Source: an uncultured bacterium (lineage in GTDB: Bacteria; Babelota; Babeliae; Babelales; Vermiphilaceae). From it: DNA of 64,000 nucleotides. A program made the position numbers and the translations under genes. Where the stretch lies: the NCBI GenBank assembly GCA_963713925.1, contig OY970212.1, positions 1,216,001-1,280,000 of the forward strand, in the 5' to 3' direction. Below are positions 60,033-61,912 of the stretch, piece after piece. The notes beneath the pieces are model-generated. The model saw only the letters and a list, made by a program, of their open reading frames with translations, had not been told where the DNA came from and did not search any database. The first letter of the stretch is position 1; the number at the start of each line of letters is the position of its first letter.

Positions 60033-60076
60033 AAAAAGAGACGTGGAAAACAGGATAGTTTTCCACGTCTCTTTTT
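60033..60076. terminator. Strong hairpin, probable bidirectional terminator
   Basis: AAAAAGAGACGTGGAAAAC..GTTTTCCACGTCTCTTTTT. Confidence 0.7.
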
Positions 60077-60222
60077 GTGTAATTTTTTTAAATATTCTTA
60101 TTCTACTTCGCTGCCTAATGGCAGCTTCGAAGAACTCCGCGCTCAATGACTTTTCAATTAGAGCTTATACGAAAATTAAGCTTTCTAACTAAAAAGTAAT
60201 TGTGTTAAAAGTCAATTAATTT

Positions 60223-61164
60223 TTAAGCACTACATACTTCGCCCTTTTTCAAGATAACATTTGCAATGATGATCAGCTTTCGCATTACTGCAACAATAGC
60301 TACTTTAAAGCTTTTTTTGTTTGCTATTAGTCGATCATAAAAGGATTTTAAAGGAGCATAATACTTAATAGTCGTTATAGCACACATATATAATGCATTT
60401 CGAGGAATAATCCTACCGCCTTGAATGAACCGTTTGCCTGTATAGTTGCCACTTTCTCGATCGTAAGGACAAACTCCGACAAGGGCTGCTATTTCATTAT
60501 TGCTTACAGATCCAAGTTCAGGCACAAACGAAATCAATATCGCGGCCGAAGATTTACCGATTCCCGGGATTGATTCCAAAAGCTCTGTCCGTTTCTGCAG
60601 TACCGCATCTTGATCAATCAATTCTTCAATTTGTTCATCCAAAGCCTTGATCTCTTTATTTAAAAAGAGGATCATTCTTTCGATACTTGAAACACCGAGT
60701 GCATGCGAGGGGTGTTTAAGTCGAGTTTTTTCAGTTGCCAAAAATTTGGTCAAATCCTGCTTTCGATTAACCAAAGATAGCAATGTTTCTTGGTTATGAG
60801 TTCTGCTGACTGGCTCATAATCTTGAGAATTCTTCGATGCAAATTCAGCAATTTTTTGTGCGTCTATTTTGTCTGTTTTGCTTTTGCAACCAGTTGCGAT
60901 TATAAAACCCTTTATCCTCCGTGGATCAACTATCCAACAACTATAGGAATGTTCCTGTAATACCCGAGTAAGCAATTTTTCGTAACCACCGGTTGCCTCA
61001 CATGCAATTTGCTTAATACTGTAATTGGATAATTGCTTCACAAACTTTTTTATTCCGCTTTCTGTATTGGGTATTTTAACCCATTGCTTCAACGGATGAA
61101 TAAAAATGTCCAAATTGTTCTTTGAAATATCGACGCCGATAAATACTTCTGGTAGGGTAATCAT
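60223..61164 (-). CDS. IS110-family DEDD recombinase/transposase
   Basis: GVDISK, CEATGGY and KTDKID (D-E-D-D); SIPGIG and RESG (catalytic Ser); VAVMRKL. Confidence 0.96.
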   Translation of the reverse strand: MITLPEVFIGVDISKNNLDIFIHPLKQWVKIPNTESGIKKFVKQLSNYSIKQIACEATGGYEKLLTRVLQEHSYSCWIVDPRRIKGFIIATGCKSKTDKIDAQKIAEFASKNSQDYEPVSRTHNQETLLSLVNRKQDLTKFLATEKTRLKHPSHALGVSSIERMILFLNKEIKALDEQIEELIDQDAVLQKRTELLESIPGIGKSSAAILISFVPELGSVSNNEIAALVGVCPYDRESGNYTGKRFIQGGRIIPRNALYMCAITTIKYYAPLKSFYDRLIANKKSFKVAIVAVMRKLIIIANVILKKGEVCSA

Positions 61165-61165
61165 A

Positions 61166-61370
61166 AATACCTCATCCTTGTAAACATTCGAGGTCGTATT
61201 AATACGCCTCTAGTAATTGTTCGAGGTAATTTCGTATAAGCTGATAGTCTCAAACTTTTTAGCAATCGATTACGATTAGGGTTGGCGCGAGCTCTATCAG
61301 CTTTTCCCGAGCAACTAATTTGTGAAACAATATACCGATCACAAATTAATACATTATCTATCAAAATTTG
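61166..61370 (-). ncRNA. IS110 bridge RNA (5' hairpin, target-binding loop, donor-binding loop); ends approximate
   Basis: Stems at 61316-61325/61339-61348, 61238-61247/61294-61303 and 61168-61173/61223-61228; four loop segments match the target and donor sequences. Confidence 0.88.
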
Positions 61371-61564
61371 AATCAATTTTTAACATACAAGGGTTGGCTG
61401 TCAAGAGGCACTTGTTTCAGCAACTTGTCCGCCGTAGCTTACCAATCCTGAAAGCCTGGATAAGCGAAGGCTGGATCCATGTTAAGTAGATCCTGAAATA
61501 AATTCAGGATGACATAGCAATAAGGAACTTTCGGGATTTTCGGATAAGCTCTTAGATGAGCGCT

Positions 61565-61912
61565 TCATTTTCCGTACTGCTTAAAAATGGCACCCTTATA
61601 TCCTTCAACAGGAACATCTCGAGGCGCTTTGAAAACCGAACTTATTAACAATATTTCCTTCGACGCGTTGATCGGAAGCATAGAACCTTTATAAGTCCAT
61701 GAATCGTACATTGGATGTGTTCCTGAACGTACGCGCGTTGCTGATTGCATGCTTAATTTAATGATGCACGATTGTTTCGGCTCTATCTCAACATCTCCGA
61801 TTTTAACCGTAGCATCACAATCATTTTTAAAGTAGTAACTCTCACTGTCCGATTCTGAGCTGTACAGACTAGCTGTTGCAATAGTAAAAGCGAATATAAT
61901 CAGTTTTTTCAT
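61565..61912 (-). CDS. Hypothetical secreted protein
   Basis: AAGGA RBS and MKKLIIFAF signal peptide. Confidence 0.6.
   Translation of the reverse strand: MKKLIIFAFTIATASLYSSESDSESYYFKNDCDATVKIGDVEIEPKQSCIIKLSMQSATRVRSGTHPMYDSWTYKGSMLPINASKEILLISSVFKAPRDVPVEGYKGAIFKQYGK

Follow-up and report, generated by a model that had tools for sequence, protein, structure and literature searches.

A split promoter predicted at the circle junction of an IS621-type IS110 element that targets an IS5-type MITE

The locus described here raises the question whether an IS110-family element assembles a promoter for its bridge RNA and recombinase when its ends join in a circle, and how it is transcribed as long as it is integrated. 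The element lies in a window of 64,000 nucleotides (the whole stretch of DNA analysed, to which all positions refer unless a genome or locus is named) from a 1.32-Mb genome of a probable member of Dependentiae (Babelota). We consider it very probable that it is an IS621-type IS110 with a circle-junction promoter, the activity of which would follow from the likeness to its studied relatives.

Element, recombinase and bridge RNA

BLAST of the host genome (G000) found three full copies of the element on contig C1 (678445-679641, 1121218-1122414 and 1276195-1277391), of which two are identical and the third differs at two bases. Since the three copies have different flanks, the ends of the element are fixed independently by this comparison. 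In the window it spans 1,197 bp including both CT cores (60195..61391, minus strand), and the three-copy comparison places the left-end core at 61390..61391 and the right-end core at 60195..60196. The 2-nt CT core at both ends of three copies in different flanks agrees with the IS621 group of the IS110 family, and so do termini without inverted repeats or target duplication beyond the core, a long left end (227 bp), a right end that extends only 28 bp past the stop codon, and four RNA guides that match flanks and donor. Directly inward of the cores lie the left donor ACAATTA (60197..60203), which is matched by the left donor guide, and the right donor TGTAT (61385..61389), which is the same in IS621. 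Further inward, a sub-terminal inverted repeat is formed by the arm TTTTAAC (60204..60210) and its partner GTTAAAA (61384-61378). With 7 bp this repeat is at the low edge of the range of the IS1111 group (7-17 bp), but membership of that group was rejected, since here it is the left end that bears the RNA and the right one is short, whereas IS1111-group elements have a long right end that carries the RNA.

The recombinase ORF (60223..61164, minus strand) encodes 313 amino acids with a DEDD RuvC-like domain (PF01548, E 5e-19) and a Tnp20 domain (PF02371, E 1e-13), the combination that defines the IS110 family. Residues D12, E56, D98, D101 and S238 are intact and invariant across 50 aligned homologues (50 of the 120 listed), and this catalytic D-E-D-D plus serine set aligns to IS621. 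The protein matches the IS621 structure 8wt6 (E 1e-37) and the ISCro4 structure, and the matches listed include a homologue of 65% identity whose source is given as a Candidatus Dependentiae bacterium, one basis for placing the host in Dependentiae/Babelota. The Shine-Dalgarno sequence GAGG (61170..61173, minus strand), 5 nt upstream of the ATG and thus within the host peak of 5-7 nt from the start codon, is invariant in 18/18 sequences. In all 18 relatives it takes part in the stem that closes the donor loop, and the fold suggests that this pairing may limit translation of the recombinase.

Fold and covariation predict a bridge RNA of about 210 nt in the left end (61165..61375, minus strand; the 5' limit is the predicted start), consisting of a 5' stem-loop, a target-binding loop (61301-61240) and a donor-binding loop (approximately 61229-61168). 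The left-end fold, a 5' stem-loop with two looped hairpins, has a z of -2.84 that was equalled in none of 200 shuffles, and two-sided changes occur at 12 of the 30 consensus pairs among 18 sequences. The left target guide GCCAACCCT (61278..61286) has the same sequence as left flank and core together (61398-61390), and the right target guide GCTAAAAAG (61255..61263) is complementary to core plus right flank at 8/9 nt in this copy. Donor matches define the left donor guide ACAATTACT (61212..61220) and the right donor guide TACAAG (61177..61182), all on the minus strand. Across 18 elements, which are not independent because of kinship, guides matched their own targets better than those of other elements (8.9 versus 5.2 of 14 guide matches; 0/20,000 permutations). 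A 13-nt match between the linker of the bridge RNA (61242-61230) and the MITE terminal repeat was considered as extra target pairing and rejected, because relatives with other targets carry nearly the same linker. A tmRNA at this site was also rejected, since the tmRNA is located elsewhere in the genome, and an Rfam search for other known RNAs at the site gave no match reaching the gathering score. As a bridge recombinase the element is intact and has been active recently; its guides are clear, and its relatives have been re-targeted in nature.

Upstream of the element and co-oriented with it lies an ORF of 115 amino acids without a Pfam match (61565..61912, minus strand), from which transcription could run on into the left end. 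Beyond the other end, a 19-bp hairpin with T-runs on both strands (60033..60076) probably ends transcription that leaves the right end. A second small hairpin repeat lies at 60098-60154, just outside the MITE, and recurs in the host genome (G000:C1 470886-470942, 991079-991116 and 1217325-1217359).

The MITE as target

The IS110 element splits an IS5-type MITE (60161..61551) that measures 196 bp when empty, has the terminal repeats GAGCTTAT(A/C)CGAAAA and is flanked by TTA duplications (60158-60160 and 61552-61554). In the host genome 21 copies of the MITE with TTA/TAA flanks could be anchored, three of which are occupied, and all three IS110 copies sit in one and the same site, about 35 bp inside the repeat. 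The guide target in the MITE is GCCAACC-CT-TTTTAG; the three reconstructed targets agree with the guides at 13, 12 and 12 of 13 positions, whereas none of the empty sites in the genome reaches at least 12/13 and eight reach 11/13, the 6-nt right window of this match having been picked after the matches had been seen.

The assignment of the repeat rests on locus L133 (1502-2366), where the same ends, flanked by TAA, bound a transposase ORF of 256 amino acids with DUF4096 and DDE_Tnp_1. The L133 transposase as a query had no match in the host genome. Elements of about 865 bp with the MITE ends were seen in L133, G019:C36, G047:C73 and G211:C26, with coding checked in L133, and these are likely the parent family of the MITE. 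The end pattern itself is present in 41 of the 261 genomes of the phylum.

Empty MITEs show a strong orientation bias, as the gene past the target-side end points at the repeat in 18/20 cases. This end therefore usually lies after the 3' end of a gene and may have a role in termination or RNA processing. The MITE copy in the window contains a nested hairpin module (61478-61425) that resembles the repeat targeted by related IS110s, and the flanks of L004, L007, L050 and L057 contain IS110 targets ending in AAG-CT-ATGGCGG or similar. It seems that this IS110 clade has been re-targeted among different palindromic repeats.

The predicted split promoter and its conservation

The right end carries the -35 box TTGACT (60210..60215, minus strand), of which the TTG is conserved, and the left end the -10 box TATGTT (61382..61387, minus strand), which shares bases with the right donor and with the sub-terminal inverted repeat. 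When the ends are joined, the sequence becomes TTGACT-17-TATGTT, with a spacer composed of 6 bp, the left donor (7 bp), the core (2 bp) and 2 bp, and with 9/12 consensus positions (5 in the -35 and 4 in the -10). A -35 in the right end and a -10 in the left end, 16-18 bp apart only once joined, is the arrangement of an IS110 junction promoter. The initial annotation had given this string and the 17-bp spacing exactly, but had placed the boxes at 60214-60219 and 61381-61386, where the minus strand reads TTAATT and ATGTTA; the correct positions are 60215-60210 and 61387-61382. In IS621 the RNA starts at the seventh base past its -10 (PMC11208160), and by this analogy transcription of the circle would start at 61375-61373, in agreement with the start proposed earlier (61375-61372).

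The host uses promoters of the type TTGAC-16/18-TAnnnT: in 708 upstream regions TAnnnT follows TTGAC at 57/373 positions with a spacing of 16-18 bp versus 62/1,872 at other spacings, and masking of repeats altered these counts little. Among the host spacers 16 bp (30/123) is favoured over 17 bp (14/122) and 18 bp (12/122), and the closest relative of the element, L002, has a junction spacer of 16 bp. On a matrix trained on the host, which drifted to AT-rich -35 boxes and is a weak discriminator, the junction scores 9.97 and so lies above about 70% of the best upstream sites. The same consensus rule was passed by chance in 801 of 20,000 random intergenic joins (4%) and, after shuffling of the AT-rich ends of the element itself, in 2,487 of 20,000 cases (12%), and a matrix score of at least 9.97 was reached in 373/20,000 and 354/20,000, respectively (approximately 1.8%). 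A single junction match is thus only modestly beyond chance, and the weight of the argument comes from conservation. An outward hybrid promoter, in which the right-end -35 would combine with a -10 in the host flank, was judged weak because its best -10 candidates (TTTAGT, and TTAGCT in copy 1) have no A at position 2. No circle or excision joint was seen in four low-depth DNA contig sets (from four of the five runs listed), but the element is not spanned in any of them and rare forms are lost from contigs; no RNA run was among those listed.

Relatives were drawn from 32 of the 261 phylum genomes, 18 extra regions, one genome contig and metagenomes, where 80 of 575 matches were kept. A recombinase match was present at 125 loci, 38 of which were removed (11 with partial genes, 8 with short flanks, 6 without a donor-guide match and 13 without a left-end core); the 87 retained represent 65 distinct junctions. 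The right ends were placed with the donor guide of the bridge RNA, blind to the -35, and the left ends with the motif of core plus donor, by which letters 1 and 2 of the -10 are preset. Among elements with at least 50% identity (n = 18, own copy included), 16 junctions satisfied the 9/12 rule versus none of the 18 integrated ends with the same -10, and among all 65 distinct elements this was the case for 31 junctions and no integrated end. The best spacers across the 65 elements were 17 bp (43 elements), 16 bp (3) and 18 bp (2). After removal of seven doubtful calls by eye, 58 elements remained, in 49 of which a TTG lies 16-18 bp ahead of the -10, compared with none of the 58 host flanks. Averaged over 15 clusters at 50% identity, the TTG frequency is 0.91 versus 0.02 in an upstream right-end control. 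The nine elements without TTG are distant, GC-rich relatives; together with the absence of a junction promoter from the ISPpu9 described in PMC12288879, they indicate that the feature is not universal.

The conservation of the -10 carries less weight. The hexamers found are TATGTT (22), TATATT (5), TATCTG (5), TATCTT (4), TATGTC (4) and others, with most variation at positions 3-5, and the last three letters overlap the sub-terminal repeat. As the calling fixes two letters and the repeat covers others, conservation of the -10 partly reflects donor recognition, and since its last T is shared with that repeat it is the -35 that carries the argument. The three innermost positions of the sub-terminal repeat, adjoining the donor, are complementary in 42, 50 and 37 of the 58 elements, whereas the TTG positions have no complementary left-end partner (complementary in only 12, 11 and 23 of 58).

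These numbers bear on another explanation, in which the conserved ends serve recognition by the recombinase or of the donor in AT-rich DNA, their promoter likeness is incidental and expression comes from read-through as in ISPpu9. The 7-bp TTTTAAC/GTTAAAA repeat that overlaps the -10, the 12% of shuffled ends that pass the rule and the lack of a junction promoter in ISPpu9 as described (PMC12288879) would fit it, and so would the co-oriented gene upstream of all three copies. The latter contrast is not significant, however (3/3 occupied versus 10/20 empty repeats, two of whose positions were added by hand), and selection for a read-through context was rejected on this ground. Moreover, the 22-bp donor sufficient in IS621 (PMC11208160) does not include the TTG island, which in distant relatives is separated from the donor by poorly conserved positions and which retains its 16-18 bp spacing without a mirror partner. 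The left end has no convincing internal promoter either, as its best matrix matches (8.16 and 7.37) lack a TA start. We therefore consider mere recognition highly improbable. Conservation is strong evidence for a split promoter, with the reservation that the relatives are not independent, and the earlier reading of a circle-junction promoter is supported by the geometry identical to that of IS621 and by the conserved TTG island without a left-end partner.

Two relatives have unusual ends. L011 (G026:C23, 2570-2620) is a broken relative with an internal stop and without a recognisable left-end core, in which the right end is followed by the donor-like TGTATCA, which gives the contig a junction-like TTGACA-17-TATCAC. 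What follows after this right end may resemble a reversed group II intron. In L003 an 18-bp stretch of the left end, comprising core, right donor and -10 region, is duplicated in tandem.

Integrated state, known systems and significance

We propose that in the integrated state, in which the left-end -10 has no matching -35, read-through from an upstream host gene would yield no more than low amounts of bridge RNA and recombinase, and the co-oriented upstream genes are compatible with this. Rare excision would then recombine the two CT cores into a circle, as in IS621. The circle brings the right-end TTGACT 17 bp ahead of the left-end TATGTT, and the housekeeping sigma-70 polymerase would initiate near 61375-61373 and produce a transcript of the approximately 210-nt bridge RNA plus recombinase. 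This burst would drive insertion at GCCAACC-CT-TTTTAG sites of the IS5-type MITE, which the guides match, and insertion would split the promoter again. By analogy the -35 may be dispensable for recombination itself, since a 22-bp IS621 donor that lacks the -35 remains able to recombine with bridge RNA provided in trans (PMC11208160).

The initial annotation, which had noted that the halves are 1.2 kb apart in the integrated state, overlooked a TTGACA in the host flank (61399..61404, minus strand) that belongs to the MITE and is a candidate weak integrated-state promoter in this copy only. The TTGACA (61404-61399) is 17 bp from AAAAAT (61381-61376; 10/12 consensus match), 16 bp from TAAAAA and, at 11 bp, too close to TATGTT. 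The junction promoter could be real and the switch nevertheless leaky in this copy; transcription would then begin some 6 nt further downstream, near 61369 but before the 5' stem-loop, and bridge RNA would be made while integrated. Host-matrix scores of 8.63 for the TAAAAA register and 8.11 for the AAAAAT register, against at most 0.24 in the other two copies (ATGACA and GCGACA at this position), argue for such leakiness, as does the 10/12 match. One key -10 base is missing in each register, though, and such matches are frequent by chance (6.2 expected per 2 kb; 453 of 9,570 random flanks pass when placed next to this left end). In the host, -10 boxes not starting with T are slightly enriched after TTGAC (36/373 versus 116/1,872), while boxes of the form TAnnn-non-T are not (16/373 versus 128/1,872), so that host statistics slightly support the AAAAAT register and not the TAAAAA register. 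The feature is moreover absent from two of the three copies and not general among relatives. Overall a leaky switch in this copy seems unlikely to us; owing to the candidate promoter in its flank, the contrast between junction and integrated state may be smaller in this copy than in the other two.

The TTGACA variant occurs in 5 of 18 empty MITE copies. A rather improbable extension is that the MITE supplies a second promoter over the left end and that matching targets have become exhausted as other repeats escaped. If this were true, a TTGACA-carrying MITE would build an integrated-state promoter upon insertion, and the target repeat would help to run the switch. Excision of all three copies would be primed by the copy in the window, which would also provide them with bridge RNA in trans. 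Other MITEs would have escaped through changes at bases matched by the guides, frequently those of the T-run, so that target exhaustion would have come about naturally.

The element resembles IS4321 and IS5075 of the IS1111 group, which reportedly target Tn21 terminal repeats: in both cases an IS110-family element exploits another mobile element by inserting close to the latter's end. The present element differs from them in that they have long sub-terminal repeats, and in that insertion is here inside a non-autonomous MITE and not in a terminal repeat. A closer comparison is IS621 of E. coli, with which it shares the CT core, the right donor TGTAT, the 17-bp spacer, the -10 starting 2 bp past the core, a left-end bridge RNA with a 5' stem-loop and two guide loops, the DEDD plus catalytic serine and insertion into a dispersed host repeat. 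In contrast to IS621, its protein is distant (E 1e-37), its boxes are TTGACT/TATGTT instead of TTGCAG/TATTAT, its left donor is ACAATTA instead of ACAGTAT and its sub-terminal repeat 7 bp instead of 2-3 bp; its left end of 227 bp and its target, an IS5-type MITE of a host that probably belongs to Dependentiae (Babelota), are also different. The IS621 junction TTGCAG-17-TATTAT, with a 6+7+2+2 spacer and right donor TGTAT, is given in Supplementary Table 1 of PMC11208160, where the Donor/Target labels appear swapped relative to its Table 2. That the IS621 junction promoter drives the bridge RNA was reported by RNA-seq (PMC11208160; PMC13626964), in line with the initial annotation, which had cited IS621 as a precedent, and bridge RNA expression from junction promoters is described for IS621 and five orthologues (PMC11208160).

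ISPpu10 of P. putida, likewise of the IS110 family, has its -35 from the right end and its -10 from the left end and inserts into a repeated intergenic sequence (10.64898/2026.03.19.712850). Its junction promoter was active in a lacZ fusion (PMC12288879), so that activity was measured there and is predicted here, and a target stem-loop requirement is reported for ISPpu10. ISPpu9, also an IS110-family element of P. putida that inserts into repeats, differs by its AG core and is described with circular intermediates and a strong native promoter, and without a junction promoter (PMC12288879); as a counter-example it implies that junction promoters need testing case by case. Taken together, these papers (PMC11208160, PMC13626964, PMC12288879 and 10.64898/2026.03.19.712850) also show that read-through is required before excision. 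A literature search for IS110 in Babelota, Dependentiae or TM6/Babela gave no IS110 paper among the matches listed, and one for IS110 combined with MITE, target and bridge RNA matched only the ISPpu9 paper.

The element is a new member of the IS621 group that carries a known switch, and the biology is already known. As the mechanism has been published and tested for IS621 and ISPpu10, little changes, and the added value is small: the promoter geometry of IS621 is extended to an IS110 clade in Dependentiae/Babelota. Its three natural copies in different upstream contexts would provide a test of how integrated elements obtain their first transcripts.
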